From the NCBI RefSeq assembly GCF_036365525.1, contig NC_090411.1:36024833-36061452 (forward strand): a DNA stretch of 36,620 nt. The letters are read 5' to 3'. The notes under the pieces were generated by a model. That model was not told the DNA's origin, did no database searches, and saw only the letters and a program-made list of their open reading frames with translations. Position numbers and translations under genes: made by a program. Position 1 is the stretch's first letter, and every line of letters begins with the position of its first letter. Below are positions 2,085 to 35,955 of the stretch, piece by piece. The stretch comes from Heterodontus francisci (taxonomy: Eukaryota).

Positions 2085-2182
2085 TCTGATGAAGGGTCAC
2101 TGACCTGAAACGTTAACTCTGTTTCTCTCTCCACAGATGCTGCCAGACCTGCTGAGTATTTCCAGCACTTTCTGTTTTTATT
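2085..2182 (+). mobile_element. Short hammerhead-ribozyme element, copy A (intact core)
   Basis: CTGATGA(2086-92)-A-GGGTC act GACCT-GAAA-CGTT-AAC, then the family body cagatgctgccagacctgctgag. 14-bp TSD tctgc[a/t]gtaactgt at 2071-2084 and 2183-2196. Confidence 0.8.
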
Positions 2183-2262
2183 TCTGCTGTAACTGTGATG
2201 TTTTGTCTTTCAGTGAGATCCGGTGGCAGCTTTTCCTGCCTCATTAACTCCATTCTGTGAAA

Positions 2263-2390
2263 ATGAGCACTATAATTCCACCAACCAATATTTCTGGTGG
2301 TGCCACCTCCCCCAGAAAAGGGCCACCAAAGTTCAAACAAAGAGTAACGCGGCAGTTCAAGAGCAAGCCCCCAAAAGCAGGGGTAAAAGG
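2263..2390 (+). CDS. PDE6G/PDE6H: PDE6 gamma coding exon 1 (exon starts about 2214 after ttttgtctttcag; ATG 2263)
   Basis: Encodes the polycationic region [22 protein letters not shown]; donor GG|gtatga at 2390/2391. Confidence 0.95.
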
Positions 2391-5267
2391 GTATGAACCA
2401 GGCATTTTCTTTATAGATTGGGAGGAAAATCGCATTCATTCTAGGAGTCTAGATTTTTTGATGTGGGCAACACTGGAACCACCCCCCCCACCCCCCCCCC
2501 CCCAAGTATTAACCTCCTAGTGATAGGCAGTTCCCAAACATCTGTTAGTACCTTATTGGAGTCAGACAGTGGGAGAGGTGCCACAGAGAGACAGCATCTG
2601 GGTTTCTGACCTCACTCCCTGCGGGCACTGATAAGCTGACCATTCCCACAGCGGAGAGTTACGTTGGCGGGGCCTCTTTGGCTCCATCGCCCGTGGAACT
2701 GGACTCTGTGTCCAACAGAAACTAAAAGCGACCTAACTTCTGAGTTGGTGAGTTTGAGGCAACAAGTGAAGTAGAGACTCGTCCACACAGGGGGAGTCAA
2801 TGGAAGTGAAATTTATCCCAATGTGGGCAGGTCTCCACTACACTTGCTGTCTCAGCTTTGGAAGCTGGGGCGTGTTTCCTAGTTGTCAATGGGTTTCTAG
2901 ATGTGACCCATCTTTTTCAGCAACACCTCTGGTGCAAAACAGAGAGGTCACATATCACAGTGATGGGGATAGGAACTCGGCAAGTTAAACACTCTCATTA
3001 TCTTTCCCATAATCCAGTAACGTAACCAATAAATTTGTCCTTAAAAGTATGTTGTGTATTAATATTAAAATGAAAGTTGGCCTCTGATCTGACTCATGTA
3101 TTCTGTTCCATTCTGTTTACTTTTGGAAGTTAGTGCTGTGTCTGTCCACTAACAGATCAACTAACTCTGATAATACAGTAATTACAGTCTTTGCAATCAG
3201 CACAGTTCTCATACCAATGTTTCCAGTTCCCAGACTAAATTTCTCTCCTTGCTATTTTAAAGCAAGGTATCGCTGGCATTAAAACAGAGTGGGGAGGAAT
3301 GTTGGCTGAGTGTTAGTAGGAGCGGAGCACATTGTTTTGCCTGCTATTTTAACAGAGGTGTGAACCCACCTAAGAGCAACATCACACAAATACTTTGTAG
3401 AATGAGATCAATCTTCATACTTCATGAAGATAAGACATGAACCTTGGTATCTACCATCAGTCAAGTATTATCAGTTGTTTTAATCTATTTTTCTGATGAG
3501 TTGTGCTGCTGTTGTATTGAACTGGGACCTTGCTGGTTTGTGATGAGCTGAGCTTTCAGACACTGATTCATTCTCATTCTCCTGCAGGTTTGGAGATGAT
3601 ATTCCTGGAATGGAGGGACTCGGCACAGGTATGTATGGAAACCATTCCCAGCTGTTCACTCTAAAGTACTGGACTTTAGTCTAATCTCACAATGAAGCAT
3701 TTGCATGCATCTTCAGCCAGAAATGCTGAGTGGATAATCCATTTCGGCCTCCTCCTGCGCTCCCCAGCATCACAAATGCCAGTCTTCAGCCAATCCGATT
3801 CACTCCATGTGATATCAAGAAAAGACTGAAGATACTGGATACTGCAAAGGCTATGGGCCCTGACAATATTCCGGGAACAGTACTGAAGACTTGTGCTCCA
3901 GAATTAACTGCGCCCATAGCCGAGCTGTTCCAGTACAGCGACAACACTGGTATCTACCTGGCAATGTGGAAAATTGTCCAAGTATGTCCTGTACACAAAA
4001 AGCAGGACAAATCCAACCTGGCCAATTACCGCCCTATCAGTCTACTCTCGATCATCAGCAATGACCTTCCCTCCATTATAAGGTCAGAAGTGGGGATGTT
4101 CGCTGATGATTGCACAATGTTCAGCACCATTCATGACTCCTCAGGTAACGAAGCAGCCTGTGTCCAGATGTAGCAAGACCAGGACAACATTCAGGCTTGG
4201 GCTGATAAGTGGCAAGTAATATTTGCGCCACACAAGTGCCAGGCAATGACCATCTCAAACAAGAAAGAATCTAACTATCTCCCCTTGACATTCAATGGCA
4301 TTACCATCGCTGAATTCCACACTATCAACATCCTGAGGGTCACCTTTGACCAGAAACTGAATTGGACCAGCCACATAAATGCTGTGGCTACAAGAGCAGG
4401 TCAGAGGCTTGGAATTCTGTGGTGAGTAACTTATCACCTGACTCCCCAAAGCCTGTCCACCATCTACAAGGCACAAGTTGGGAGTGTGCTGGAATACTCT
4501 CCACTTGCCTGGATGGGTGCAGCTCCAACAAAACTCAAGAAGCTCGACGCCATCCAGGACAAAGCAGCCCGCTTGACTGGCACACCATCCACAAACATTC
4601 ACACCCTCCACCACCGATGCACAGTGGCAGCAGTGTGTACCATCTACAAGATGCACTGCAGCAATGCACCAAGGCTCCTTCGACAGCACCTTTCAAACCC
4701 TTGACCTCTACCACCTAGAAGGACTAGGGCAGCAGATGCATGGGAACACCACCACCTGAAAGTTCCCCTTCAAGTCACACACCATCCTGACTTGGAACTG
4801 TATCGTCATTCCTTCACTGTCGCTGAGTCAAAATCCTGGAACTCCCTTCCCAACAGCACGGTGGGTGTACCTACACCCCAATGACTGCAGTGGTTCAAGA
4901 AGGAAGCTCCTCAAGGGCAATTAGGGATGGACAATAAATGCTGGCCTTGCCAGAGTCACCCACATCCCATGAATGAATAAAAAAATCTTGCTCTCTGACT
5001 GCAGGTCGGATGAGCAGAGAACTGGGCTTGCGTACTTACACTCAAACATGCTCGGTGGCCACTTGGGTAAGGCACTGGAGGGAACTGTGCCTCAAGAGGA
5101 GTCAGTGCTTCAGGAAATGAACAAGGAGAGGATTGATATAGAAAATAATCTTGATAATAAGGAGTTTAATTCTCTCTGTGTTTCTTACAGATATCACTGT
5201 GATCTGTCCCTGGGAAGCATTCAGCCACCTGGAGCTGCACGAACTGGCTCAGTACGGTATTGTCTGA
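2263..5267 (+). CDS. PDE6G/PDE6H: Retinal cGMP phosphodiesterase 6 inhibitory gamma subunit, spliced CDS join(2263..2390,3588..3628,5191..5267), 81 aa
   Basis: Joined exons give [81 protein letters not shown], recognisable as PDE6 gamma. All introns are GT-AG with matching phases (2, 1). The paralog (G, H or I) cannot be fixed without phylogeny or synteny. Confidence 0.96.
3588..3628 (+). CDS. PDE6G/PDE6H: PDE6 gamma coding exon 2 (41 bp)
   Basis: ttctcattctcctgcag| acceptor, encodes (G)[13 protein letters not shown](D), donor AG|gtatgt. Confidence 0.96.
3693..4985 (+). mobile_element. 5'-truncated non-LTR retrotransposon (CR1/L2-group family B), internally deleted, in a PDE6 gamma intron
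   Basis: RT motifs [18 protein letters not shown] and FADD; stops and frameshifts; (gaat)n-A tail at 4970-4985. Confidence 0.9.
5191..5267 (+). CDS. PDE6G/PDE6H: PDE6 gamma terminal coding exon
   Basis: tttcttacag| acceptor, encodes (D)[27 protein letters not shown] at 5265-5267. Confidence 0.96.
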
Positions 5268-5586
5268 AACTGGGAGATACCAAGCAGGCATTAGAATCTG
5301 GCCCATGTTCCAGCTGCATCAGTAACTACAGTGAAGCAGATGGGGCTGGGTTACTATTAGAAGCCACTGTGTGCAGTAACTCATAATTACTGTTCAAACC
5401 CCACCAACCTGAACATTAATGTAGCTGTCAGTTTTCAGACAATGGTTGTGGGGAGCATTGTGTAATCTAAAATTTAAACATACTTTATGTTGTTTAAGTT
5501 ATTTATGCAGCACTCAGTTGTATGGTAAAGTTCTATTTTTAACTAATATAGAACTCTAATCATTGCATTATTATTTCTGTTTGATC

Positions 5587-5592
5587 AATAAA
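5587..5592 (+). terminator. Candidate polyadenylation signal of the PDE6 gamma gene
   Basis: AATAAA 320 nt after the stop codon in an AT-rich 3' UTR; a second AATAAA lies near 5715. Confidence 0.55.
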
Positions 5593-5774
5593 ACTATCTG
5601 TGAATTTGAATACTCTCCTGTAAAATGGGAGAGGTGGGTGAAAGAATTTCAATTGGTCCTGTCAATGAGCTGACTCATCTATTATAGTTAAATTGGAATG
5701 TGCATCAGAATGAAAATAAAAGCTGGTAGCTTTAACTGGACACAATTGGGTTAGATAATCATACATTGGATGGG

Positions 5775-5923
5775 GAAGAGAAGCAGAGTTAACGTTTCGG
5801 GTCAGTGACCCGAAACGTTAACTCTGCTTCTCTTTCCACAGATGCTGCCAGACCTGCTGAGTGGTTCCAGCATTTCTTGTTTTTATTTCAGATTTCCAGC
5901 ATCCGCAGTATCTTGCTTTTATT
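5775..5923 (+). mobile_element. Hammerhead element copy B, fold-back 5' end, CUGANGA missing
   Basis: Perfect 29-bp inverted repeat 5776-5834 centred on stem II; TSD atacattgga[t/c]ggg at 5761-5774 and 5924-5937. Confidence 0.8.
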
Positions 5924-6153
5924 ATACATTGGACGGGATCTTGGTGTTTCCTTGGCTACAAATGAGAGTCTTGAGATGGTTTGAAATCTGATCTGTTGTA
6001 GCTATGCTCACCTCATGGGTTGTCATATCTACAGAAGCTGTCCCATTGTATCTGTTTCTCAGTTCTAGAAACTGGAAGAATAAACTCACATATGCCAGCT
6101 GATATGACGTTTATCGTAACAGAATAAAGTGGAAAAGATCCCCGAGGGGGCTG

Positions 6154-6408
6154 TTACAGAGTCTGTAACTGTCCCATCTTCACCCATTCAATTTTCTTCT
6201 TGATGCCATAGGAGTCGAGTGTTAGATCAGCATGTCGCCGTTTCAGCGCCTCCAGCTTGTGGCGCAGTCTGTCACTGGCGTCCACATTCTCCTCAAAGTC
6301 GCGAAGCAGCACCTTGTTACAGAGCAGGCCGCACTTCTCCTTCAGCTTGAAGTTGGCTGCTCGGACTCTGTCTCGTGCCTGTTTGGTTTTGGTCAAGATT
6401 TCCCGTTT
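6154..6408 (-). CDS. CCDC96: CCDC96 exon 12 (terminal)
   Basis: ttacag|AAA CGG GAA; KREILTKTKQARDRVRAANFKLKEKCGLL...KMGQLQTL*, TAA at 6156-6154. Confidence 0.93.
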   Translation of the reverse strand, partial: KREILTKTKQARDRVRAANFKLKEKCGLLCNKVLLRDFEENVDASDRLRHKLEALKRRHADLTLDSYGIKKKIEWVKMGQLQTL

Positions 6409-9400
6409 CTGTAACGACCACAAATGGAAGTCGGGTTACAGACCAGAGCATGTCAAAACCAAGAATCAAAGCAATAATATAAAAAGAAAATAAGATTACT
6501 ACCCAATTTTTACTGGGTCAGATCTTGGCTCAAACCTGTCTATCATACAGCATTGTTTCCTACATTACAACAGTGAGTATACTTCATTGTACTTCATTGA
6601 CTGTGAAGCACTGTGGGACAACCTGAGGTCATGAAAGGTGCTATAGAAATGCAAGTCTTTCTTTTTCTTTTTATTAAAGCTGGGATATTACATTACTGAA
6701 ATTAGTCCACTAAGCAAGTTCTTTGATTTTATCAAAGTCATTAACATATATAAGACTAGAGGATTAAAATCTCCTGAAAAAAATCACATTTACAACTACA
6801 TTGAATTTACAACCATTTGGCCCAACTGCTCCATGTTGGTGTTTCTGCTCCATACAAGCCTCCTCCCACCCCCTCTTCATCTCACCCTGTCAGCATATCC
6901 TCCTATTCCTTTCTCTCTCATGTGTTTATTGAGCTTCCTCTTAAATATATCTACACTATTCACCTCAACCACTCCTTGTGGTAGTGAGTCCATATTCTCA
7001 CCACTCTCTGGGTAAAGAAGTTTCTCCTGAATTCTTCATAGAAGCAAAGGAAATAGGAACAGGAGTAGGTCATTCAGCCCCTCGAGCCTGCTCTGCCATT
7101 CAACTAGATCATGGCTGATCTACCTCAATGTCATTTTCCCACACTATAACCATATCCCTTGATGCCTTTAATATCTAGAAATCTATCAATCACTGTCTTA
7201 AACATAGGCAGTGACTGAGCCTCCACCACCCTTTGGGGTACAGAATTCCAAAGATTCACCACCCTCTGAGTGAAGAAATTCCTCTTCATCTCAGTCCTAA
7301 ATGGCCTACCCCTTATTCTGAAACTGAGTTCCCCGGTTCTAGACTCCTCAACCAGGAGAAACATCCTTCCTGTATCTGCCCTGTCGAGCCCTGTAAGAAT
7401 TTTGTATGTAAGTAGTCGTTTGGTAGTACAGAACATGAATACTGCTGAAAATAGAGACATGTTTTCAAAGTTTTTCATCTTGCACTCATCAGGCAATCGC
7501 AAGAATAACCAATGTAAGGGAAAACAACAACGTATACTGCATGAGAAGAGAGTGCTGATTGGTTGGCAAGTGGACTCTGATTGGTAGAGGTGTTACCATG
7601 GAGAATGCGCCAGTTTACGGTGACTGACAGTTAACTGCCAAGCTTTGTTTGAAATTTAAATCAGGCAGCTTGACTCTGATTGGTCAAGGCATTGTCCTGA
7701 GGAATGAACCAGCAAATGGCTCACTTATTTTGTTCAGCTGAAACAGGCGCAATGTTTGTACATGCTCTTTCTGTCTGCAAAGAATAGGGCCCTGTGTATT
7801 AATATATGTAGCGTCCAGTACGCGCAAATGCACCACACTGCGAGCCCTACTGACAATCATAAATTGGTTGTCAGCACAATTCTTAGTACACTGTAGATTA
7901 CTTAGCAAATGTTGTCCAATCGCGGAATCACATCTAATGTTGCACTGTGTCTTGAGTTTTGCAAGCATGGGCTGGTTGGGTACGGCCCGTACCTTGACCG
8001 TTGCGAACAGCAGAACGGATATGTTGTTTGATACGATCCGCCAGTCTTTGGGACGTACGGCCTATATACCTAGCATCACACTGGCATTGAAATTCATGCA
8101 TCACATTACTCATTTGTGAGATAGGCAGGACTCTTTTTGGCTTGACTGCAGCGTCCATTCAGCAATACACAAATTTTGTATGTTTCAATGAGATCACCTT
8201 TTATTTTTCTAACCTCTAGCGAATACAGGCCCAGTCTCCTCAATCTCTCATAGGACAATACCACCATTTCAGGAATTAGTCTGGTGAACCTTCGTTGCAC
8301 TCCCTCTATGGCAAATATATCCTTCCTTAGGTAAGGAGACCAAAACTGTACACAACACTCCAGGTGCCATCTCACCAAGGCTCCATACAATTGCAGTAAG
8401 ACATCTTTACTCCTGTACTCAAATCCTCTTGCAATAAAGATCAATACACCATTTGCCTTCCTAATTGCTTGCTGCACCTGCATGTTAGCTTTCAGTGACT
8501 CATGAACAAGGACACCCAGGTCCCTTTGGACATCAACACTTACCAATCTCTCACCATCGATCATTGGATTTACTCGTGGCTATCTTATGACGTTTTCCTG
8601 TGATTGCTAACAACTCCACCTCACCTCGAGAGGCTCAGCATGGTTGGTGGCACATGGAGGAATGTGTAGCCCTCTTCTTTCTGAGATTGAGCTGGAGGAA
8701 TACTGTTGGAGCAGAGCTATAGCTATCCAGGGAGAACTTGATGCTGACACTGGGTACCTGAAATGGGAAGAGGTCCATTCCCAGCAATAACTTCCTCTTG
8801 CTAATACAAAAGTAAAATATTGCAAATGCAGGAAATTTGAAATAAAAATAGAAAATGCTGGAAATACTCAGCAGGTGTAGCAGCATCTGTGGAGAGAGAA
8901 ACAGAGTTAATATTTCAGGTTGATGACCTTTCATCAATTTCCCAGTTTAGTATATAAATGACTTGGATCTTGGAACAGAGTAAAATTTCAAAATATGCCG
9001 ATGATACCAAACTTGGAGAAGTGGCAAGCAGTGAGGATGATACCAATTGACTGCGACAGAAAATAGATAAGCTAGCAGAATGTGCAGACAAGTGGCAGAG
9101 GGAATATAATACAGAGAAGTGCGATGTGATGCATTTAGGCAGAAGGGATAGGGAGAGGCAATATAGACTAAGTGGCACAGTTCTAAAGAGTGTGCAGGAA
9201 CAGAGGAACCTGGGGGTGCATGTACATAGATATTTGAAGGTGGCAGAACATGTTGAGAATGGTCAGCAAAGCATATGGGATCTTGGGCTTCATAAATAGA
9301 GACACTGAGTACAGAAGCTGGGAGGTTATGCTGCATTCTTATAAAACTCTGGTTAGGCCACAACTAGAGTACTGCATCCAGTTCTGGTCACCACACTTCA

Positions 9401-12400
9401 GGAGGTGTGCCATCCTGCCATTCACATCATCTAGACACATCATTCATTTCTTTGTTTGTCCCATTACCACTCTTACTGAAACTTTTGTCACTTTAATCAG
9501 TCTTGCCCTCCACCCTATCACAGATCTTCCCTTTTGCTCTTCTTCACTCCTCCTGCTCACTTTCACCTGCTCAAAGCCTATTACGTTTGGAACTTTTCTC
9601 AGTTATGATGAAAGGTCACAGACTTGAAACATTAACTCTGTTTCTCTCTTCACAGATGCTGCCTGACCTGCTGAGTATTTACAGCATTTTCTATTTTTAT
9701 GACACAGATTTAAGGTTTTGGGCAAGAGATACAGGGGTGATGTGAGGAAGAACATTTTTATACACGAGTAGTAATGACCTGGAACTCGCTGCCAACGAGG
9801 GTTTTAAAAGGAAATTGGATGGGACTTTGAAGGAAATAAAGTGTAAAGCTATGGGATAGAGCTGGGCAATGGAACTGACTGAATTGCTCTACAGAGAGCT
9901 GTCGTGGACTTGCTGGGCCAAATGGCCTCCTTCTGTGTAGTCATGACTCTATGACCCATCCTACCCACCACCCTGGTACCTGTGCCACGATGGCCTCAAG
10001 GTCCATGAGCTGGGTTTTCTTCTCCATATTCTCCGTTTCCACATATTCCAGCTTTTCCTTGATATGGGTCATCACCCCAATGGTAAATTCAATTTTCTTC
10101 CGCATTTTTGTGACTTCCTGTAAAATGAACATCAGGTCTGAATACCTGTCATTTTTCTAATATTCCATTAAAAGCAAAGTAAAATATAAAACAATTGTCT
10201 CATAAAGTGACAACTTCAATTTTGAAATCCTGCCTACACCAAAATGTTTCCACACCTCATTTAATTTTACATTCTTCCCACTTTTTCTCCTGCTCTGGAG
10301 AAGATACTGGCTGTCACTGGGGTAGAGCGAGTGACAGAGCACACTTTACCAGCAGCAACATCAGCAACAGGAATGTCAGCTTATTCTTGTCCAGATCAGT
10401 TGTATTGACCTGAGCTGGTCCCAATAGAATTCTGACATCCTTGCATCAAGGTACTTGGTGTGTTTTTGTTTTCTGTTTAGTCTTTAGACACATGGAGTAC
10501 TGTACTGTTGCAGGATTATAGGCAGCAGTTGAAGAAGTTAAATACAATCTATCAATCATTCTAACTTGGTTCCCATGTGGTGTATAAAATCATAGAGTCT
10601 AAATCAGGGCTTGGAAGTTGCCCTGTCCCAGGCCTCAGCCCCACTGGATTTTGGTGGGCCAGGTGGAGACCTGAAATTCTCACATCCTGCCCAATTTCCT
10701 GCCCTTCTGGCCAAAATAGAACTCAGGCCCTCAGGAAATGGTGGGCCCTGAGCTGCTGCATCTCTTTTCCTTGTTAGGAACAGTCTCTACACTAGGCAGT
10801 GCAGTTTAACATTTATTTTACATAGTGAAGTCTGGCATCTGTTGCCAAAAAACGTGGGGTGAAAAAATACACCTTTTATTTTTCCTTCCTGCTTTCCAGG
10901 CTGGGATACAGTTCCACTGGAACTAAGCCTTGGGGTTGGCACCTTTGGGAACAGAGAAAGGAAACAAGGCTAAAAGGAACATTTCACTGTTTGTACAGTA
11001 TCTACATTCTTTTAAAACAGTACATTTGGAAATGCTCCTTTCTGACCTGTTCCCTCTGTCCTTTACTAAAGTGTTAACTCTTGCTGTCTGGCAGCTCCTG
11101 TTTCACGTGTGAACTTTAATAGTGAGCGTGGATGGGCTGATTGATGGTGGGAGGGGAATTCATTCCTGTCCCCACCTGATGTCCGTGAATACATGAGTTG
11201 GAATTTTACGTTGGGCGGGAGGTCCCACCCACGAGCCAAAAAGTCGGTGGTGAGCTTGCTTCTGCAGGCCTGGGGAGCTATGCCAGGATTTTACACCCCC
11301 CCAGGCCCTTAATTGGCCTTGGGCGGGACTTCTGCCCCTTGAGGCAGGAAATCCCGCCTCCAAGAGCTGTTGGCCAATCAGCGGGTTGGCAGCTCTCATT
11401 CCCAGCAGCGCCTCTGGGTGCGGTGACCACTGCTGGGACTGCACCCAGCTTCAGCAACAAGAGGGACGCTGGCCCCGGAAAAAAGGTAAGTTTCTGGGGC
11501 CTTGCCGGGGACAATTGGCCAGGTCTGGACGAGGCAAGGGGGGGTCGGTTTGCGAGGTGGGGTCAGGAGCGTAATGTTGTGTAGTGGGAACGGTTGGGCT
11601 GTGGGGTGGGGGGGAACTTTTTGTGGGCACAGGACACTCGTTCAGGAGGGTTGCCCCCCCCCCAGCTCGCAAGGAGGCAGGCAGGTTTTACTGGGTGGCC
11701 TCCTGTGGGGCCTGAGCCACCTGCCAGCCGCTGATAAAATACCAGCAGCGGTGGGAAGAAGCACTTAAGGGCCTTGATTGGCCTGGAGCGCTGTTTCTCG
11801 CCGCCACTGCCTCTCGTAAAATTGCTGCGGGGTGGCACACCCACCTCCCCACCTCCCACTCAATTGTACAAACCTCCCCCCCATCCCTGCCACCAGCCCG
11901 CTCCTTTGGGGTGGCATAAAGCCATACAGTCCACTAGAATCAATGGACAGTGATTTGAAGTGGGAACTCAGGCTGATTTTTCCCCTCCCCAGTCCAAAGT
12001 TTGAGTTCAGCTGACAATTCAAACTGGGAAACCATTTTTGAGGTCCATATGGCCTGGTGTTACAGTGGGCAGGAAAATGCTCTCATACTCTCTAAGCAGT
12101 TTATTCAACCAAGTTTTTGCAACAGTGGCGCAGTGGTTAGCACCGCAGCCTCACAGCTCCAGCGACCCGGGTTCAATTCTGGGTACTGCCTGTGTGGAGT
12201 TTGCAAGTTCTCCCTGTGTCTGCGTGGGTTTCCTCCGGGTGCTCCGGTTTCCTCCCACAAGCCAAATACTTGCTGGTTGATAGGTTAATTGGCCATTATA
12301 AATTGCCCCTAGTATAGGTAGGTGGTAGGGAAATATAGGGACAGGTGGGGATGTGGTAGGAATATGGAATTAGTGTAGGATTAGTATCAATGGGTGGTTG

Positions 12401-21400: not shown

Positions 21401-24400
21401 CTCCTCTTCAAAATAGAGCAATGGGATCTTTTACATCCACCTGAGAGGGCAGATGGGGTCTTGGTTTAATGTCTCATCATGTTCTCCTTAGAGTGGAGAA
21501 AGAGATTTGATAGAGGTGATTAAAATCATGAAGGGTCTAGATAGAGTAAATAAAGATAAACTGTTTCCAATGGCAGATGGTACAGATTAAAGGTGATTGT
21601 CAAAAGAACCAGAGGCAACATGAAGAAAACTTTTAGGATTTAGAATGCACTGCCCAACAGGGTGGTGGATATAGATTCAGTAGTAACTTTCAAAAGGGAA
21701 TTAAATAAATACTTAAAGGAAAGAATTGCAATAATATGGGAAAAGTAGGACTAAATGGATTGCTCTTTGAAACAGCTGGTGCAAACTCATTTGGCTGAAT
21801 GGGCTCCTTCTGTGCTGTACTTTTCTATGATTCTATGATCTGAAAGGTGGCACTACTGATCCCTCACTACTGTAATGGAGTGTCAACTTAGATTATGTGC
21901 TCAATTCTCTGGTATGGGTCTTAAACCCACGACTATTTGACTCACAATGAGATGAATGACTAGCTACCCTATAGGAGAGTATAGCAAACAAAAAAGAGGA
22001 GTTAAACTGGAGAATATACTAGTTACATTAACTGTCAGAGTAAGGTACTAGGAGGTATTGTAAAAAATAGAAAAAGAGTCATAAAGGAAGGGATTTACTT
22101 GATATTTGTACTCCAGCTCCAGACGCTCAAGAGATGCTTGTCCATCTTCAACCTCAGCATCTTCATCTCTCTCTTCTACAGTGGGTGTCTCTAGCAGAAG
22201 ATGAAAGATGACATTTAAAATGGTATCTTGGCTGATATGAAAGTTGATCATAATTCTTCTGAATTCTAATATACATTCCTTACAAAAGCATTAGAAACAT
22301 TTATTCTGATTTATAAAATGAAGTCAGACTGTTCTGAAGATCTTCTGCATGCAGCAAGTGTGGACATGCAGGGCACAGGTGAAAAACTTTTAAAGTTCAA
22401 CAAGATGGAAGGATGGATCCTCTTGGTCCTGCAGTTGGCTGCATCGGATTGCATGCACACAGTGACTACACAAGAACTGGTCTGTATGCCTGTAAAGGAG
22501 CCTGCCCAACTTCTGTATGTTAATTTAAATGGATGGAATTTCAGGTGAGCTCCCTCATGAGTGTGTGTTTCTCCCTGCCCAACTTCCAACTTTCATATGT
22601 GCGTTGTACCCAGGAGATGCAGTACACCAGGCGGAGGACTAGAAAAATCCATCCTTGATTTTCGAAAGTCCAATTAGCTGAAATCACTCAATCACTGCTT
22701 CTCCAATGTACAAGGCTGCTGATAGGCATTCGACCTAACTGTTCAGCCAAGAAGCATTTTAATCATTTACTGTGGTAACAGTTCTAAGTTATAATCCGTC
22801 TCTAAATTGATAGTAATAAAAACAAGAAATGCTGGAACCACTCAGCAGGTCTGGCAGCATTTGTGGAAAGAGAAGCAGAGTTAACGTTTCGGGTCAGTTC
22901 TGAAGAAGGGTCACTGACCCGAAACGTTAACTCTGCTTCTCTTTCCACAGATGCTGCCAGACCTGCTGAGTGGTTCCAGCATTTCTTGTTTTTATTACTA
23001 TCAATTTAGAGACGGATTATTTCTTGTTTTTATTTCAGATTTCCAGCATCCGCAGTATTTTGCTTTTATCTAAATTGATAGTGTTTTTTTCTTTCTTTGT
23101 TCCCAAGTTCCATAGTGCCTCTATATCAAAAGTCTATTATTTCTTCCAGGCCCAAGATATTATCCCCCTTTCTCCACACAGCTAAGATAATGTACCTTTC
23201 ATAGTTCATTGCAAGCTGTATCCTCGCTCTTCAACCTAGTGCCACCCAATGATAGTAAGTCTAATTTCCATGACCTTACCATCCAACCCAAATGCAAGTC
23301 TTAACGTTCTATTGGTATAACCTCCCCTGTGCCATCAACTTTGATGCCAAGAATACCTTCTCTCTCCGGTGTCCCAGGTTCTAATGTTGGTAGACCTTTT
23401 GCAAATTCTTCCTTTACAGGACTATCATCATGTGCTAAATCTTCACCAATGATAGTCAGTGGTTCTTCCTTCTCCCCTTCTGAAAAAGTGTTACTAGTGG
23501 GCAAAGGTGATGCAGTCTGCTTCTCCATTTCCTTTGCTTCTTCATCCTGGTTATTGATGGAAAAAGTTGAGTTAGATTAAACAATATAAATAAGACTGAT
23601 GATACACTGAAGTAGTAGCAAGATTGGAATCTGAATCTGAAAGATGTATTTGCAGAATGTAGATTGGAGTAAATGTCGAATCTTCCTCGGTCCAATATGA
23701 TATTAGCCAATGTCCATCTAAAGTACATCCTACATAAAAGCTGACAAACATCCTTTATTACTTAGCATAATATTTATATATGGCACTTCGTAGTAAGCAT
23801 ACTTAAATAACTGCTAGTATTACAGTAATTGTCTTGTTCCCAAGTTTCAGCACTTATGCTTACCTGGGTTTATAACCTTCTCAAGTTTACAGATTAAGAA
23901 CAAAGAACAAAGAAAATTACAGCACAGGAACAGGCCCTTCGGCCCTCCAAGCCTGCGCCGATCCAGATCCTCTATCTAAACATGACACCTATTTTCTAAG
24001 GGTCTGTATCTCTTTACTTCCTGCCCATTCATGTATCTGTCTAGATACATCTTAAAAGACGCTATTGTGCCCACGTCTACCACCTCCGCAGGCAACGCGT
24101 TCCAGGCACCCACCACCCTCTGTGTAAAGAACTTTCCACGCATATCCCCCCTAAACTTTTCCCCTTTCACTTTGAACTCGTGACCCCTAGTAATTGAATC
24201 CCCCACTCTGGGAAAAAGCTTCTTGCTATCGAACCTGTCTACACCTCTCATGATTTTGTACACCTCAATCAGGTCCCCCCTCAACCTCCATCTTTCTAAT
24301 GAAAATAATCCTAATCTACTCAACCTCTCTTCATAGCTAGTGCCCTCCATACCAGGCAACATCCTGGTGAACCTCCTGTGCACCCTCTCCAAAGCATCCA

Positions 24401-27400
24401 CATCCTTTTGGTAATGTGGCGACCAGAACTGCATGCAGTATTCCAAATGTGGCCGAACCAAAGTCCTATACAACTGTAGCATGACCTGCCAACTCTTGTA
24501 CTCAATACCCCGTCCGATGAAGGAAAGCATGCCGTATGCCTTCTTGACCACTCTATTGACCTGTGTTGCCACCTTCAGGGAACAATGGACCTGAACACCC
24601 AAATCTCTCTGTACATCAATTTTCCCCAGGACTTTTCCATTTACTGTATAGTTCACTCTTGAATTGGATCTTCCAAAATGCATCACCTCGCATTTGCCCT
24701 GATTGAACTCCATCTGCCATTTCTCTGCCCAACTCTCCAGTCTATCTATATTCTGCTGTATTCTCTGACAGTCCCCTTCACTATCTGCTACTCCACCAAT
24801 CTTAGTGTCGTCTGCAAACTTGCTAATCAGACCACTGATACTTTCCTCCAAATCATTTATGTATATCACAGGGCTCAGTCAAACCCAAGATATACATTTG
24901 CTCCTCTGATGGCTTATTGTGTAAATGTATCACCCAGTGTGATACTGGGATGCATAGATCAGAAAGGTACCAGATTTGAGCCCCAGCCTGTTCAGAAGCT
25001 GCTAGTCTCAGCTGGATCTTTGGTTAGGGCACTACAATTGACTTAAGCACAAAGATTAATGAGAGAGAAAAACTACCCAAGTTTCCTACTCCTGATTCCT
25101 ACTAGAAAATGTGTATGATGGATGGAACAAAATTGAGCTTGACTAGTTCTGATGAAAGGTCGCTGACCTGAAACGCTAACTCTGCTTCTCTCTCCACAGA
25201 TGCTGCCAGACCTGCTGAGTATCTCCAGAAGTTACTGTTTTCATTTGAGCTTGACTATGATAGTTCTGCAGCCACATAGCCTGTCAGCTACACAACACAT
25301 GAAACTAGTTGGATAATGTATTAAAAGGCTGGTGATGCCTGTAGCATCATACTTCAGCAAAAGAATGTGCGTCAGGAAAGAAGCAAACCAAGGGGAGAAT
25401 AATTTTTAAAAAGGCAAACACTAGATAACAAACTTCAATATCATGGTACATTGACATTCAGTCCTGTGCCCATCTAACTGTAAACTTCTACTTCCAGCAT
25501 TGATTTTCAGAGTTTACATATTGATGGAACCCATTGTCCAATTTGTTTATGCAGCATTTCCAGGGCATTAAACATTAGGTTTTATTCGTACAGCAGTGTA
25601 TATCCAGACAATGTTGCACACTCTAGCTAATGAGATGGATTGTTACCAGTGGGTTTGTGTTGGTTAGGTGGGTTCTCAAATGGAAAAGTTCAATGATCAA
25701 CTGCTTGTTCATTGGTAACCGAGACCAATAATAGCTTGAATATATTAACTATATTCAAAAGCATTAGTTTACAGGTTTCAGACAAATAGACAGAATCATG
25801 CAACAGGATCTCCCAAAGCACCAGTAAAAATCCTGGAATCTCATATAATCAGACAAAGATTGACGCTGAGCCAAACAAGGCAACATCAGTTGGGGAGACT
25901 AAATGCTTGGTCAAAAAGGTAGATTTTAAAAAGCATTTTAAAGGAGGAGAGAGATAGAAAGGCAGAGAAGTTTAGGAAGGTAGTTGTAGAGCTTAAGACA
26001 CATCCACCAATGGTTGACTGAAGAAAGTGGAGCATGCATTAGGGGCCAGAGTCGGAGACCTAGCAGGGTTGTAGACCTGGAGAAGATTACAGAGATAGAA
26101 AGGGGTGAGGCCATGGAGGGATGTGAACATAGGGTGAGAATATTAAATATTGAGGCCTTGCTGGGATAGGAACATGTGGATCGGTTATCACTGAGTTGAT
26201 GGTTGAGCAGGATTTGGTGCAAGTTAGGATACAGGCAGCAGAGTTTTGGATGTTTATGGAGGGTGGGAGGCAAGCCAGGAGCGCACTGGAATAGTAGAGT
26301 CTGGAGGTAATAAAAGTGAAAGCAGTTCTGATGAAAGGTCATCGACCTTAAGCGTTAACTCTGTTTCTCTCTCCACAGATGCTGCCAGACCTGATGAGTG
26401 TTTGCAGCATTTTCTGTTTTAATTTATAACAAATATGTGGATGATGATTTCACCAGGAGAGAGGCTGAGACAGGCGATATTATGGAGGTGGAAGTAGGTA
26501 GGAAGTAGAGAGAATATGGGGTCAGAAGCACAGGTCAGGGCCAAATGGATTCCCGAGGTTGCGAACAGTCTGGTTCAGCTAGAGCTAGCAGCTGGGGAGG
26601 GGAATAGAATTTGTGGCAGGTGCTGAAGATAATGACTTTGGTCTTCCCAACCTTTAATTGGAGGGAATTTCAGGTCACACGGGAGTGGATATCGGACAAG
26701 CAGTCTGAAAGCACGAAATCTGTAGAGCATAACTTGTAGAAGTTTGGGAAGTAGAGATGGTTGGAACAAGCTGAGGAGCTGGGAGATACATAGAGAGCTA
26801 CTGCTGGCAGGAGGGTGTAATTACAATGTGACAAGCATACATAGGCAGTTTCCATTATAAATGTGGACATAAGAATTTGTATATAGATTATATATTCTTT
26901 TTAATCACTATTTGATCTTTTGTAAAAACAGAGGCAGATACTCACAGCAATCTTTTCTACAGTCATGTTCGGTTCAACCGGTTTTTCTCCTTCAGAATTA
27001 AAAGACTCAGTTAATATGTTTATTAGTAAAATCAAGCCCAAACACATGGATAATAAAACTGGATTGTGGAGAATTTATCCATTCAATATTATATCTTATT
27101 CTCCTTCATTCCTCATAATCCCTGTGCTCTCTATCTCCTCTCCGCAATGTGACAAAATTGAAATCAAGGCTCACCATTCTGCCCCCTACTTTAACATCTT
27201 TCCCTGCATCTCACTTAATCTTTCCTCCCCCCCCCCCCCCCCCCCCACAAGCTACATGCCTTAGATTCCCGAGGTTAGAAGATTCAAGCCTTGCTATCTT
27301 TTAATCATAGCTTTGTCTTTTCTCCAACTTTTTCAATCTTGTTGCTGTCCTACATTATGGACCCTAGCCCTTCACCCCAGTCTGTTAACTTAAAAAGGTG

Positions 27401-30400
27401 GTTTATCTGAATTCAAATAACCAGCTTTCCTTTTGTAGAGAAAACCAAGATGTGGCAAAAATATGTATTTTTTTAAACTTCCTGTCCTTTTTCTTCCTCC
27501 AAGCTATCCAATACATATCTTCTTCAAGATGATTCCTTCACATCTAATCATTATTACTACTCTGGAATCAGTCTGCTTTATAGAAGACCACCAATAGCAT
27601 CCAAGTGGAAAAGATAAACAATGTCAATACTTCTACTTCTTTAACACCAATATCATGCTGGTGCTTATTTGACAGACAAGCTAGGAATTGAAAACTCTCC
27701 AACAGGAGGCAATGCACTCAGCCACTTGAGTTACTGTGCTGCCTTGGGTAGCTAGGTTTCTGAAGGCTCTCTTAGTCTTTTATTCATACACACAAACATA
27801 CCTACGTTGCTACTTATTTCACTTTGTTCCTTTAATATTTCCTCTGGCACTTCATCACTTTTATGTTCCTGAATTTCTTGGGTAGCTCCATCACTGTCAG
27901 GAGGTAGATTTACTTCCTTCCCCTCATCACGGACCACGCTTTTCTCTTGTGCAGCTTCTTTCCCAACTTCAGGTTGTTCTTTCTCTTTTTCTGCTGTTTC
28001 TTCAGTGATCTCTGCAACTAGAAAGAGAAATAAAACAATTACATCCTTTCCAGAGGAACTGAAAGGCACCAGGATGAGGGATCAGAATTATTCATGGCTG
28101 AATACATCTTTACTGGTTTGAAAACACAGTGTAGCTCAAGAATTGCTCCATGACTAGTGTCAATGCCTCTACCTGTCCAGAATCAGGCAGGATAATTAGT
28201 CCTACCACTACTCCATCACTCCCACATCACCCCTCCTCCAAACTCCATTTGCCATACACTTCACTTCAGCCTTTAGTATTCCATCTAGTAATCTGCAGAA
28301 ACAAAACTATCTAAATGGATCCAAGGAAGTTGATGAAGTGTCAAGTGACTGTCACAAATTTGAACCCACGACTTTTGTTTTTGAGTTGGGTGGCTGACTA
28401 TGTGAATAATGATGGTTCCACCTCTCCCTGAGTCTTTGAGATTGTTTATTACTCACACCCATTCAAATGCATATTTCTTTCTTTCACCTTGTTCCTGTGC
28501 TGCTTTTTCAATCTCTTTTTGCTCCAAAGTGGGGACAGTGGCAGGTGCCTGGACTGGCGGAGCTCCTGCAACCCCATCTTCCTCAGCCCAATCTTCCTCT
28601 TCATCTTCTTCAATAAAGGTGTCTGAGATGAGAAAAAAGAAATACTGCAGTTCGCATCCTTTCATACTGAGGTTTAAAGCAAACATTCCAAGATGGCATC
28701 AATCAGGAAATGCCTTTTAATAAACGGAGTTACTACGTTACATACTACCTTACCGATTTCATGCTCGATGGAAAGAATTTACATTTATATAACACCTTTC
28801 ACAACCTCATGCCATCCCAAAGCACTTCACAGCAAATGAATTACTTTTGAAGTGTAGTAATGTGAGGATACTTTCAGGTACATAAACTGAGAACTGTACA
28901 CAGTTATACAGTTCTGCAGTTTTTGTGGAATTACTCATTAACTGGAACAGGATCATTCCTTCCTGGAGAGCCAGGGTAGCTGGATTGGAGGAGAGAACTT
29001 ATTTATCTGAAACAGTATATTATAGCTGTGAGAACTGAGGGGACAGAAGATTGTGGGTGCAGGCCTATTACGTATAATCTAGGTTGAGACTTTAGTTAAC
29101 GAATGCTGCATTGTTGAAGGTGCTGTATCTGGAATGCAATAAACTGAGGTCCTGTCTGCCTGCTCAGATGTAAAGGATTCAACAGCACGATATGAAGAAC
29201 AGGAGTTCTTCTATTGTCCTGGTTAACATACCTCCCTTAATAATCATCATCTAATCTTAATTATTAGTGATTAATTTTCTGTTTGTTGACTCTTGCTATG
29301 CATGCATTGGCTGTAATGTTGCCTACATTCCAACAGTGACTGCACTTTCAAAAATAATCAATTGGTTATAAAGAGCTTTGGGATATTGTGAAGGTGTGAC
29401 ATAAATACAAGTTCTTCCTTTAGAACTATAGAACCATAGAAAAATCACGGCACAAGTGGAGGTCATTCAGCCCATCATATCCGTGCCAGCCAAAAAATCT
29501 AGCCGCCCAATCTAATCCCACCTTGCAGCACCTGGTCCATAGCCTTGCAGGTTACAGCACTTCAGGTGCATGTCCAGGTACCTTTTAAATGAGTTCAGGG
29601 TTTCTGCCTCCACCACCGTTTCTGGCAGTGAATTCCAGACACCCACCACCCTCTGGGTGAAAAAGTTTGTCCTCATGTCCCCTCTACTCCTTCTACCAAT
29701 CACCTTAAATCTGTTCCCCCTGATAACTGACTTCTCCGCTAGGGGGAACAGGTCCTTCCTGTCTACTCTATCTAGGCCCCTCATAATTTTGTACACCTCA
29801 AGGAAAACAACCCTAGCCTATCCAATCTTTCCTCAAAGCTGCTACTTTCAAGCCCTGGCTCTGTACTCTCTCCAGAGCTTTCTCGGGAGCTGTCTGTATG
29901 GTGGATGATTTGGTTTCCCTACTGAAATTAGAATTTTTTGGGAGGATGATAAGTTGTGGGAGGCAGAAGTTAGCCGTAACTGCTGGTAGTTTTCTGACTC
30001 CAGATACGGCCTGTACATTATTTGCTCTGACTGGCAAATGTTCTAAATGGTTCAGTGGTGACAGTGCCACAAAGTAGTTGGATAAGCCTTTATCCTCTTG
30101 TTTCCAAATGTAGAGGCATTATCATAGTCCTTCTTTTCTATCATATTTTCACAAGTATTTATGAACAATGAGTTCATAAAACTGTAAACTTAAACTAGTC
30201 CCACAACAAAGAAATATGAATACCACAGCACCAAGAGATCAGAGTAGCCAGTTCTAATCAAAGCTCACAAATTCATCAGCATGGAAATAGGGACAGTGCT
30301 TCCACAGGAACGTAGGACCAGGAAGTAGGCCACTCAGCCCAGTCGAGCCTGCCCCACCATTCAATATGATCATGGCTGATCATCCACTTCAATCCCTTTT

Positions 30401-33400
30401 TCCCACGCTATCCTCATATTTCCTTATGTCATTGGCATTTAGAAATCTGTCAGTCTCTGCTTTAAACATACGCAACAACTGAGCTTCCACAGCCCTCTGG
30501 GGTAGAGAATTCCAAAGATTCACAACCCTCTGAGTAAAGAAATTTCTACTCATCTCAGTCCTAAGTGGCTTCCCCCTTAATTTGAAATTGTGTCCCCTGG
30601 TTCTAGACTCCTCAACCTGGGGAAACATCTTAGCTGCATCTACCCTGTCTATCCCTTTAAGTATTTTGTAGGTTTCAATGAGATCACCTCTCATTCTTTG
30701 AAACTCTAGGGAATACAGGCCCAGTTTCCCCAATCTCTCTTCATAGGATAGTTCCGCCATCTCGGGAACAAGTCTGGTGAACCTTCGTTGCACTCCCTCT
30801 ATGGCAATAATATCCTTCCAAAGATAAGGGGACCAAAACTGCACACAGTACCCCAAGTGCGGTCTGACCAAGGTTCTATACAATTGAAGCAAGACTTCAC
30901 TACTCCTGTACTCAAATCCACTTGTGATAAAGGCTGACATACCATTAGCCTTCCCAATTGCTTACTGCACCTGCATGTTAGCTTTCAGTGACTTATTGAC
31001 AAGGACACCCAGGTCCCTTTGTACATCTACACTTTCTAATCTCTTACCATTTAAGAAATACTCTGCACATCTGTTCCTCCTACCAAAGTGGATAACCTCA
31101 CATTTTTCCATATTATATTTCATCTGCCACATTCTTGCCCACTCACTAAGTCTGTCCAAATCCCCTTGAAGCCACTTTGCATCTTCCTCACAACACACAT
31201 TCCCACCTAGTTTTGTGTCATCCGCGAACTTGGAAATACTACATTTGGTCCCCACATCCAAATCATTGATATATATTGTGAACAGCTGGGACCAAAGCAC
31301 TGATCCCTGTGGTACCCCACTAGTCACAGTCTGTCAATGCGAGAATGACCCCTTTATTCCTACTTTCTGCTTTCAGCCTGTTAACCAATCCTTAATCCAT
31401 GCTAGTATATTACCTCCTATCCCATGTGCTTTAGTTTTGCTAACCAACCTCCTGTGGGGGACTTTATCAAAGGCCTTTTGAAAATCCAAGTTTACCACAT
31501 CCACCGACTCCCCTTTATCGATTCTGTTAGTAACATCCTCAAAAAACTCCAATGGGTTCGTCAATCAAGATTTCCCATTCATAAATCCATGCTGACTCTG
31601 CCCAATCAGATCATTATTCTCTGGCCTATGAAAACTACTAATGTAGTCGGAACTTTGAAAATAGTTTTGCTCTCCACTGACGCGTTACATAGATATTGTC
31701 AACTTGGCTCACTTCAGAACACTCGCTGTCTGAGTCATCAAACTATGGTTTAAGCTTTACTGCAGAATTGGAGCATTAATTTCTGTCTGAGACTGTAGTG
31801 CAATGCTGAGAGATTAGTCCATTGTGTAAGGTGCTATGCTTCAAATGAGAAATTCTTTTCAGGTGGATGTTAAAAATCTCTTGCCACCTCTTGAAGAATA
31901 GGGAGCTCATTGCCAACTTTCTGCTTCCAACTGCTACCAGTGAACTCCACAGGACGTTACGGCATCATTGGCTGTGTGAATGAGATTGTGATCTAGTTTT
32001 ATTTTATGCACCTTTAAGTTTAACAGGACTGTTTTCAGAAGTACCTTACTACCCGGATTAAGGATGCACTTGAACGTGCTGTTTCTGTCCCAGTGGGTGA
32101 CCCAGTGCCACCCTTTCTGCTCCAATTAAAATAGTCCCAATCAATGCCATGAAAGCAGAATAATTGATCATTTATCTTCTTGCTGTTGTTGCCTAGTTAA
32201 CACCAGTGACTGCGCTCCAAAGCAATTGGCTGTCTCTGAAGTGTATTTGGGTGCCCCTGGGAGCTGTGATAAACCATTAGCTCAATGCAGATTGTTTCTC
32301 CTGGTGCACAGAAAATTCCATGAAAGGAATCTTGTTGAAATAACTTCTCACATTTAGGAATTGACTTTTATGTGGAGCAGGAATGGGGTAAATTAGGACC
32401 ATCAGCGGTTAGTTGGCTGACTGGCATTTGAGCACACCTATTGCTATTAGTATAATAAAAGCAAAATACTGCGGATGCTGGAAATCTGAAATAAAAACAA
32501 GAAATGCTGGAAATACTCAGCAGGTCTGGCAGCATCTGTGGAGAGAGAAGCAGAATTAACGTTTCAGGTCAGTGACCCTTCTTCAGAACGGTATTAGTAG
32601 TTCACTAAGTATTGACTCATTGCTTTATGTTGCACAGTGCTTTGTGTGGTCAGGAATGGCATATTCTGCTCAATCAATTGAACACACGCCTTTCCTTTGA
32701 GCAATAGTGGCGTGACAGGCACTAACACCCCAAACTACCCTATCGTCCTAGATGTTGCCAGGACTGGAAAAATGCAGCTATGAGGAAAGATTGGATAGGC
32801 TGGGGTTGTTCTCCTTGGAACAGAGAGGCTGAGAGGAGATCTGATTAAAATGTACAATATTTTGAGAGGCCTGGATAGAGTGGAGGTGAAGGGTCTATTC
32901 ACCTTAGCAGAGAGGTCAGTGATGAGGGTGCATAGATTTAAAATTAGAGGGGAAATGAGAAAAAACTTTTTCACCCAGAGGGTGGTGGGGGTCTGAAACT
33001 CACTGCCTGAAAGGGTACTGAAGGCAGAAACCCTCAAGTCATTCAAAAGGAGTCTGGATATGCACCTCAAATGCTGTTAGCTGCAGGGCTACGGACCAAA
33101 TGCTGGAAGGTGGGATTAGAATAGGTGGATCGTTTTTCGAGCGGCACAGACACGATGGGCCAAGTGGCCTCTTTCTGTGCTTTAAACTTTCTATGATTCT
33201 AGGCTTGTAGAGATGGACAACAGGGCAATCGCCGACCAAAGTAAAAAGTGCTGCCTCTCTTTAAAGGTACCAGGGTAAGATTCTGGTGGGTTTCTTTTTA
33301 ACTTTGCATTCTTTATAAAGTTGTTAGCTTGTTGCAATTGTTTCCTCAAATGAATATGAACAGGATTTTCTAAAAGGACCATAAATGGTATCGAAAGGAC

Positions 33401-35288: not shown

Positions 35289-35300
35289 GTTGGAGTCGCG

Positions 35301-35355
35301 GTTACTATGGAGATCCCAGCGTTCAAAGCGTCACCATGGTTAAAGGGACCGCCCC
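35301..35355 (-). promoter_or_regulatory. RFX X-box-like pair and GC box at the CCDC96 5' end
   Basis: GTTACTATGGAGAT (35301-35314) and GTCACCATGGTTAA (35330-35343) resemble GTNRCCATGGYAAC; CCGCCC near 35349. RFX control is typical of ciliary genes. Confidence 0.65.
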
Positions 35356-35700
35356 TCCCCAGGGTTCTGGGCTAAGTGACTCCAGTCTCATTCAACTTTC
35401 AGCCACTCGTTGCCATTAAAAGTTTAAAATATTCTATATTACAATCCAATTGTAAAATATAATGGGGAACAAATGCTGGAAATAAACATGTAGGGCAGCA
35501 TCTGAAAAAAGTCATAAATATTTAGGAGTTTACCCTTCATTAAACTGGAACTTTGCAATAGTGTCACTTGTGGTTTTATTTTGTAGCAATTTATCGCAGT
35601 TTTGAATGTGCGGAAGTTAGATAGTCAGGGAATGCTAGAAAGCTCATAATGGAAGATCAGCCTCTGTAGTTATAATAGAGTAACAAAGCTAGAGATTAAC

Positions 35701-35955
35701 TGAAATAAAAACAGAAAGTGCTGGAAATACTCAGCAGGTCTGGCAGCATCTGTGCAGAGAGAAGCAGAGTTAACATTTCAGGTCAGTGACCTTTCATCAG
35801 AACTGGCAAAGGTTAGAAAGAAATTAGGTTTTAAGCATGGGGGTGGGGGCAGCTGGTGGGAAGAGAACAAAAGGAGTGTGATAGGACAGAGGGCAGGAGA
35901 GATTAAATAACAAAGCTGTCATGGGACAAAGGCAAAGAGCGTGTTAATGCTCGTG
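35701..35955 (-). mobile_element. Hammerhead element copy I, 5'-extended
   Basis: Reverse strand AGTT-CTGATGA-A-AGGTC act GACCT-GAAA-TGTT-AACT preceded by the leader shared with copy D. Confidence 0.8.

Follow-up and report, generated by a model that had tools for sequence, protein, structure and literature searches.

Short hammerhead-bearing repeats in Heterodontus francisci are very probably truncated pLTR copies of an intact Penelope-like element

The window analysed here is a whole stretch of 36,620 nt from Heterodontus francisci (contig NC_090411.1, positions 36,024,833 to 36,061,452). A sequence-only reading of it had reported nine loci of a short hammerhead-like repeat, and all nine are present, at or near where it had placed them. 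An HMM search of the window returned 11 segments at these nine loci, because B and E each carry an inverted second arm. Counting the A of AGUU as +1, stub A (2083..2184, forward strand) covers +2..+103 and stub F (25145..25246, forward) covers +1 to about +102, and stub G (26323..26425, forward) is of an old lineage. Stub H (32453..32589, reverse), of an intermediate lineage, extends over +2..+137 including the tail, which is also borne by stub C (8805..8936, reverse; old lineage). Stub B (5773..5922, forward), from the young lineage, is a fold-back whose inverted arm (5773-5811) and tail-bearing forward arm (5799-5922) are joined at helix II; a similar junction occurs in young copies L277 and L310. 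Insertion E (22815..23069, forward) is head-to-head, its inverted arm (22815-22898) meeting the forward arm (22893-22996) through a GTCAG overlap, and 3' of the forward arm it continues with 24 nt of the left flank, copied in inverted orientation, and then a tail fragment. The arm junction of E recurs in L200/L273 and L285. The description of the repeats as short copies fails for D (9450..9700, forward) and I (35700..35955, reverse), two longer, old-lineage stubs that reach 120-160 nt upstream of the motif (120-150 nt in D, about 155 nt in I). The upstream part of I was the route to the ORF-bearing copies.

All five TSDs proposed earlier were confirmed with one mismatch each: 14 bp for A (2071-2084 / 2183-2196), 14 bp for B (5761-5774 / 5924-5937), 16 bp for E (22799-22814 / 23067-23082), 15 bp for F (25131-25145 / 25243-25257) and 10 bp for H (32443-32452 / 32590-32599). 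In pairs of random flanks, the matched length is at least 13 in 0.3% of cases and at least 9 in 3.8%, making the TSD of H the weakest. No TSD above chance level was found in the flanks of C, D, G and I.

The assignment to type I hammerheads agrees with the minimal form of Penelope-like elements (PLEs; PMC4209133), with AGUU/AACU as helix I and a predicted cut after GUU. Other parts of the motif are an extra A 5' of a 5-bp helix II and a palindromic ACGU that replaces helix III. The shared motif stands as a family consensus and not as a property of all nine loci, since only E matches it throughout, in its forward arm (CUGAAGA). Both core boxes and CGUU are retained in 3/9 window loci, including A (CUGAUGA, G-U at 10.1/11.1) and H (CUGAAGA, G-U), whose helix I is imperfect. 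U16.1 is changed to C in F, GAAA is lost in G, the core of C and D is broken (C3 lost), CUGANGA is absent from B, and I has U15.2 where the consensus has C. Judged by these bases, the hammerhead motif would be usable in only two to four of the nine loci. GUU is a cleavable triplet, slower than GUC. The canonical boxes (CUGANGA, GAAA, U16.1-H17) are found in two older lineages, and in 16/33 sampled motif-covering segments.

In an Rfam scan, which the sequence-only reading had suggested, no hammerhead model matched at E ≤1, and the 14 matches were all miRNA-type hairpins under the gathering score. We consider this result neutral because minimal motifs lie outside the Rfam hammerhead models. Likewise, the fold z-scores of six stretches (-0.7 to +0.2) are uninformative, and the structure therefore rests on the motif and not on folding energy. 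Per-position comparison across copies revealed, by eye, no visible excess of core-base conservation relative to the body; in dead copies, such an excess would not be expected. The 10.1/11.1 pair is A-U, G-U or G-C according to lineage and mostly stays paired. Its history hints at past selection on the fold, the older lineages having kept the canonical core, and is weak as covariation because it comprises only two events.

The repeats had been taken for a separate non-autonomous or retrozyme-like family; comparison with other copies identifies them instead, very probably, as 5'-truncated ends of an autonomous PLE that is intact in the same genome. These other copies, whose 5' ends are scattered, remain homologous for more than 1.3 kb in the upstream direction and enter frames for RT, a CX4CxxC linker and GIY-YIG. 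In a protein search, 150/150 scored candidates lacked stops within the match, many of them lying in 924-aa open frames and some spaced 3,290 bp apart; the six loci fetched, which were chosen for tandems, all contained tandem 3,290-bp units, 99.3-100% identical, with a 924-codon open frame. To the pLTR of the intact unit, B and E are each 96% and H 94% identical. The first Met lies about 170 nt 3' of +1, beyond the tail, and from there the ORF encodes 916 aa with RT and, at its C terminus, GIY-YIG in a single frame (RVT_1, E 6e-6; GIY-YIG, E 2e-3; both under the curated Pfam cut-offs), including the motifs KPADKG, YIDD, CNRRRCNTC and VYCIRCSQCGLLYIG. Homologs of the ORF numbered 1,579 at E ≤1e-30 among 7,999 scored. 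The CNRRRCNTC linker, at aa 782, fits the CX2-5CxxC motif common to Neptune and Nematis (PMC8557442), and the parent is a probable Neptune-type PLE. Pfam analysis of eight broken frames from old copies gave only one GIY-YIG match (E 0.035) and two weak unrelated ones, so that an intact ORF is needed for the domain call; a PDB sequence search returned nothing relevant. Truncation at the 5' end, an adjacent inverted copy and an optional 37-nt tail at one end are all present in the family. Acceptor-like motifs occur at +2, +55 and just 5' of the ATG, and no GT..AG joint was found among the 15 listed of 30 joints. Additionally, in four public contig sets the depth is far greater over the stub than over the ORF; the 22 public runs are all contigs, most only guessed as RNA, and since contigs cannot show starts, ends or levels this depth was not used as evidence.

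Three subfamilies (CUGAUGA with A-U, CUGAAGA with G-U and CCGAAGA with G-C) each have both long and short copies, and stubs carry the diagnostic bases of the long copies in each. The youngest, ORF-intact lineage has the core CCGA(A/U)GA with a U4C change, a substitution reported to lower cleavage; C stands at position 4 in 30/30 motifs from ORF-selected loci and 68/71 readable young cores. The remainder of the core is kept, as are both helices (I and II) and the ACGU palindrome. We rejected CpG noise as the origin of this C, given that decay goes from C to T and that the C form marks the intact lineage; the CUGAAGA of E, which has a G-C pair, may itself be a CpG decay of CCGAAGA. Genome-wide, the load amounts to 38,860 canonical-core matches and 33,510 exact U4C copies. 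The figure of one copy per 4 kb, if extended to the whole genome, is about 4-5 times too high, as a locus occurs there about every 18 kb (roughly 330,000 in all). The density in the window is local, with nine loci where the genome sample predicts 2.0 (Poisson P 2e-4, an overstatement given that the counts are overdispersed).

We examined copy ends in a young sample of 100 segments, all within the first 11 Mb of a single contig, counting inverted arms apart (L254 and L256 share flanks). These ends come from a gapped alignment; earlier upstream extents came from an ungapped walk that halts at indels, and for this reason only the short/long split was used from it. Thirty of the 5' ends lie at -1..+5 (0.070 per base at risk) and 15 at +6..+13, as compared with 0.0006 per base upstream of -60; in a position-chosen sample, 27/48 loci start at -4..+13. 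This pile-up coincides with a pyrimidine tract and CAG resembling a 3' splice site. None of the 100 young segments starts at the predicted cut site (+31..+36) and 30 start at the first bases of the motif, indicating that uncut RNA was copied. Together with the U4C change of the youngest lineage, this leaves unsupported the idea that cleavage is part of the copying route. The 3' ends fall at +97..110 or +133..142 in 98/100 young segments, defining two fixed ends at about +101 and +137. Inverted loci made up 15/48 of the position-chosen sample, and in 17/18 inverted loci a short arm is combined with a long one. An exact TSD of at least 9 bp flanks only 14/29 short non-inverted young copies. As many as 6,034 young copies seem to begin at +2 and 6,524 at +1. 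Among the first 100 listed of each, 56 and 39, respectively, have a G immediately before the start (expected 29% and 27%), as compared with 7/26 at other truncation points. This G excess suggests a capped 5' end, although it could instead reflect a nick-site preference, because in two stubs with a clear TSD (L190 and L204/L280) the upstream G lies inside it.

We therefore consider it very probable that the nine repeats are 5'-truncated pLTR stubs of the intact PLE, likely produced by copying of uncut RNA with run-off at a probable capped start. This RNA start would probably correspond to the bases with which the hammerhead motif begins. If the Anolis PLE is a guide, the RT/GIY-YIG protein would nick the target and begin to reverse-transcribe the RNA from one of two internal sites. 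A start in the 3' pLTR would generate long, variably truncated copies; from the 5' pLTR, the template would end after 100-140 nt, leaving a stub. Priming on both nicked strands, one per site, would give head-to-head copies in which one arm bears the tail. The stubs are likely dead ends, and the hammerhead, predicted to be weak, would belong to the pLTR by inheritance. It is likely not needed for copying or insertion, because the cut site is not the start of any sampled young copy and U4C, found in the youngest lineage, is predicted to weaken cutting; in the Anolis PLE, mutating the ribozyme left insertion in vitro unaffected (PMC11167929). More tentatively, with somewhat less than even confidence, the hammerhead may be a passenger on a promoter and first exon and the stubs integrated strong-stop cDNAs, with the arm rule reflecting a dimeric RT with two fixed sites on two nicked strands and young insertions copying uncut RNA to its capped start.

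Other routes from the same parent to a shared 5' end are conceivable. One is an RT stop or template switch at the front of the hammerhead fold, or a splice junction, on a long read-through RNA. A second, lower band of ends at +6..+19 and recurrent joins at helix II show that junctions are shaped by local structure and microhomology. A pyrimidine tract and CAG also end at +2 in both lineages, and an intron of D. virilis ends at helix I (PMC4209133). However, the fold is weak and should stall the enzyme on its 3' side (+26..+37), precisely where ends are rarest, and the G excess at +1/+2 is absent at other ends. Moreover, the bases 5' of stub starts are, by eye, heterogeneous, with no common first exon, and we regard this origin as unlikely. 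Nor did inspection by eye of the sequences upstream of stub starts reveal a common first exon joined by splicing to +3. Far less probable still is a self-propagating, non-autonomous family, retrozyme- or SINE-like, whose short RNA would be cut by dimer hammerheads and re-inserted. Its diagnostic bases would not be expected to follow, subfamily by subfamily, those of the long copies, as they do; no short tandem arrays of the unit occur in the window, no young copy begins at the cut, and inverted loci differ in their flanks and mostly also in their junctions. These observations outweigh the features that such a family would share, namely a real hammerhead motif, TSDs, a length that varies rather little and a very large number of copies, as well as the tandem pLTR-derived non-LTR retrozymes of one cartilaginous fish (bioRxiv 10.64898/2026.07.22.740005). 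ARAGORN found no tRNA, and a tRNA-derived SINE was rejected, the head being the hammerhead region of the pLTR.

Compatible with the stub identity is the proposal that the U4C hammerhead still cleaves in vivo, aided by the element protein or by tandem dimer pairing, in a step without trace in insertions, with separation of tandem transcripts or limitation of expression as possible roles. The young lineage does keep the rest of the core together with both helices and the palindrome, and the tandem 3,290-bp units could supply a dimer partner. A U4C viroid variant with much lower in vitro activity remains infectious (PMC3088659), and in Anolis the PLE ribozyme needs its protein in order to cut (PMC11167929). 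But no young insertion begins at the cut, the rest of the motif would be expected to persist for so short an evolutionary time even in the absence of selection, and dimers of minimal hammerheads (min-HHR) cleave weakly in vitro (PMC4209133). We thus view continued cleavage as possible, if rather improbable.

As such, the family is ordinary, because pLTR hammerheads of metazoan PLEs, including those of truncated ends, are already published (Cervera and De la Pena 2014, PMC4209133). Our literature search, which did not extend to Repbase or Dfam, where it may be catalogued, found no description of this shark family. Its value lies in being a very large, young data set for whether PLE hammerheads are functional or merely riding along, posed as an open question in PMC8557442. 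If our reading is true, it is a natural experiment on their purpose, in which the most recently expanding lineage fixed U4C and still has numerous intact ORFs and more than 33,000 motifs identical to one another; this lineage and its U4 predecessors form a matched pair suited to cleavage and transposition assays. The junction statistics add genome-scale support for the two-site, two-strand priming of the Anolis element in vitro. An effect on host RNA is unlikely, because the lone motifs, tens of thousands of them with canonical cores, lack a dimer partner. PLE hammerhead dimers have reportedly been worked on by Lunse et al. (2017).

The motif shares with min-HHR the type I core, a 4-bp helix I, an extra base between 9 and 10.1, and a palindromic 15.2-16.2 without helix III (PMC4209133). 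There, min-HHR are mostly single motifs ascribed to truncated PLEs, in fish to Xena, Poseidon and Neptune; helix II is 7-8 bp in S. mansoni, as compared with 5 bp here, and the 4,000-9,000 motifs of coelacanth and Xenopus, counted with another descriptor, are fewer than ours. The available text mentions neither sharks nor a U4C lineage. As in the EN+ PLEs Neptune and Nematis (Craig et al. 2021, PMC8557442; Arkhipova et al. 2013, PMC3846280), we found a single RT and C-terminal GIY-YIG ORF with a CX2-5CxxC linker, heavy 5' truncation, tandems, an adjacent inverted copy, TSDs, solo pLTRs, a 30-40 bp tail at one end and an Inr-like pLTR motif; the sharp 5' pile-up at the first base of the hammerhead and the near-strict short/long arm pairing differ from the descriptions available in those sources. 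Non-LTR retrozymes (Li et al., bioRxiv 10.64898/2026.07.22.740005) also have a type I hammerhead in pLTR-derived sequence and dispersed monomers, but they are defined by tandem hammerhead units, whereas the only tandems seen here consist of full coding units, with the short copies occurring singly or head-to-head. Poseidon of Anolis carolinensis (Frangieh et al. 2024, PMC11167929) belongs to a different clade, and its ORF starts inside the hammerhead, whereas here the first Met lies past the tail. In Anolis, nevertheless, the tail is defined by two internal sites of RT start, both strands are cut and extended, and uncut RNA is the main substrate, all of which would probably hold here too; the Anolis study reports no RNA-seq ends at the cut site.

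Nine short-repeat loci (A to I) were recovered in the window by sequence inspection and a profile search, as in the sequence-only reading, and five carry target-site duplications (TSDs) with one mismatch each, of 14–16 bp in A, B, E and F and 10 bp in H; among random pairs, 13 matched bases occurred in 0.3% of trials and 9 in 3.8%. The full hammerhead motif ascribed to all copies was complete in E, but it holds as a consensus only: the core is retained in A and H, although their helix I is imperfect, the palindrome of I has a wobble, and the motif is broken in B, C, D, F and G. No hammerhead match was returned by the Rfam search of the window, and the window stubs folded no better than shuffled sequences. 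The observation was therefore confirmed in part, and the accompanying interpretation, which started from a minimal hammerhead ribozyme and proposed a non-autonomous element, derived from Penelope-like elements (PLEs) or retrozyme-like, was likewise partly supported.

The two longer copies, D and I, reach upstream of the hammerhead motif. A search with the upstream part of I retrieved 30 loci, whose mutual homology stops at scattered points from ~30 to >1,300 nt upstream, and translation of the six longest revealed broken reverse transcriptase (RT) and GIY-YIG frames. When one broken frame was used in a protein search, all 150 scored candidates were stop-free in the match, many within 924-aa open frames, and six fetched loci contained 3,290-bp tandem units with 99.3–100% identity. 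The terminal repeat (pLTR) of these intact units is 94–96% identical to B, E and H, and 80–88% to the other window copies. In the tandem units, the hammerhead motif follows the stop codon of a unit and precedes the first Met of the following unit by ~170 nt. The natural ORF gave RVT_1 and GIY-YIG matches, both under curated cut-offs. Its product has its closest named homolog in bamboo shark (71% identity), suggesting a cartilaginous fish as host, and carries a CX4CxxC linker, described as characteristic of the PLEs Neptune and Nematis (PMC8557442). By the tested features, the parent belongs to the EN+ PLEs, its pLTR carrying a minimal hammerhead, and it is likely a member of the Neptune clade. 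We found no published description of this shark family in the literature, although Repbase, Dfam or the supplements of the retrozyme preprint may list it. A strong splice-acceptor-like tract (L142, a locus elsewhere in the genome, 4318-4348) ends 2 nt before the first ATG of the ORF, just beyond the tail, and suggests that the 5' UTR contains an intron, like that of Penelope in D. virilis. On the minus strand of another locus, L051, a 968-aa open endonuclease-RT frame of a LINE adjoins a truncated PLE copy.

Density was sampled on the larger contigs, C1–C49, with 88 stretches that were each 10 kb long and placed at round coordinates. Counting from the A of AGUU, the first base of the motif, as +1, three of the 66 segments obtained fell short of +30 and were dropped; the remaining 63, in 48 loci, give one locus per 18 kb (bootstrap 14–27 kb), or, by extrapolation, ~330,000 loci (225,000–437,000) in the 6.0-Gb genome, whose contig C41 contains the window. 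The proposed density of one copy per 4 kb is thus not typical of the genome, the window being ~4.5 times richer. The canonical-core pattern had 38,860 genome matches versus 95 for the reversed control, and 21,151 with a paired helix II; the 100 matches listed all look like this PLE family. One 32-mer with the U4C core change has 33,510 exact copies.

At 12370-12897 and 14308-14670 (minus strand) lie an exon, whose frame matches the CCDC113/CCDC96 coiled-coil family (E 1e-15), and a probable further exon, so the nine loci are likely in or near introns of such a gene, of which an E/K-rich frame near 28005 (minus strand) may also be part. LINE-type RT fragments, which we take to be CR1-like, occur at 3730-4900, 8106-8579 (minus strand), 19457-20460, 23976-24878 and 30389-31333, one with RVT_1 at E 2e-5. 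A second, presumably Poseidon-like, PLE family at 7455-8110 (minus strand) has a GIY-YIG-like frame that gave no Pfam match and in which the cysteine-rich EN pattern seen in the main family is missing; a decayed hammerhead-like CUGAUGA motif lies near 7492, ~190 nt beyond the stop of this frame. The window also contains a 69-bp minisatellite (15139-15427, 4.2 copies) and a MITE-like palindrome (17610-17825, 98-nt arms, 86% complementary), inside which a CUGAUGA..GAAA string at 17775 is probably due to chance.

Three ribozyme lineages can be told apart, CUGAUGA, CUGAAGA and CCGA(A/U)GA, with A-U, G-U and G-C, respectively, at pair 10.1/11.1; in this order they become more similar to the intact unit. 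In the last, young lineage, position 4 is C in 30 of 30 motifs from ORF-selected loci. Of 100 young copies, 71 have a readable core, with C at this position in 68, and three more were out of register. U4C is reported to lower activity considerably in vitro, and a viroid carrying it to remain infectious (PMC3088659); minimal PLE hammerheads are described as not cutting as monomers and cutting weakly as dimers (PMC4209133), and an Anolis element with ribozyme mutations as still inserting in vitro (PMC11167929).

A young-lineage anchor at +41..+66 was matched to the genome, and copy ends were mapped for the first 100 matches. Of these, 30 have their 5' start at -1..+5 and 15 at +6..+13, 37 reach beyond -140, and none starts at +31..+36, where cleavage is predicted, indicating that insertions were copied from RNA uncut at GUU/AACU. 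The simplest reading would be that cleavage is dispensable for making insertions; the hammerhead may still act, with protein help, at some other step. At the 3' side, 98 of the 100 copies end at +97..110 or +133..142, the two positions reflecting the optional 30–40 bp PLE tail, whose length in an Anolis PLE is reported to equal the spacing of two internal RT start sites (PMC11167929).

Some 12,500 young copies genome-wide appear to start at +1 or +2. Among the first 100 listed copies for each start, G precedes +1 in 39 (27% expected, P 0.006) and +2 in 56 (29% expected, P 2e-8); at other truncation points it does so in 7 of 26. The context at +1/+2 fits an initiator. In LINE-1 and SVA, untemplated G has been read as the trace of a cap that was copied (PMC4859970). 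Against a cap, the G falls within the duplicated target in two stubs with clear TSDs, and the same bases at the stub start also read as a splice acceptor. Setting the G excess and initiator-like context against these two points, we therefore regard the putative capped RNA start at +1/+2 as likely only.

Copies were arranged head-to-head in 15 of the 48 sampled loci. Of 18 young inverted loci, 17 pair an arm ending near +100 with an arm ending near +137, compared with about half expected if two equally used sites were chosen independently. The arms are repeatedly joined at helix II or through a short overlap of -2..+4 with helix II, B and E of the window being examples, and flanks differ. The pattern fits a putative route in which both nicked strands were primed and the two cDNAs then joined; another proposal for inverted copies is self-priming on an antisense template (PMC3846280). 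Between the forward arm and a tail fragment of insertion E, a 24-nt piece of the left flank is repeated inverted (22997-23020), as though copying of one arm had run back into the target and then jumped to the tail.

Two outcomes are of value, the lineage with U4C and the statistics on the junctions. Non-LTR retrozymes are tandem units by definition, and the window copies are not, so that the retrozyme-like alternative was not borne out within the window. Compared with EN+ PLEs, in contrast, the family in the window works alike, and the tested features match.
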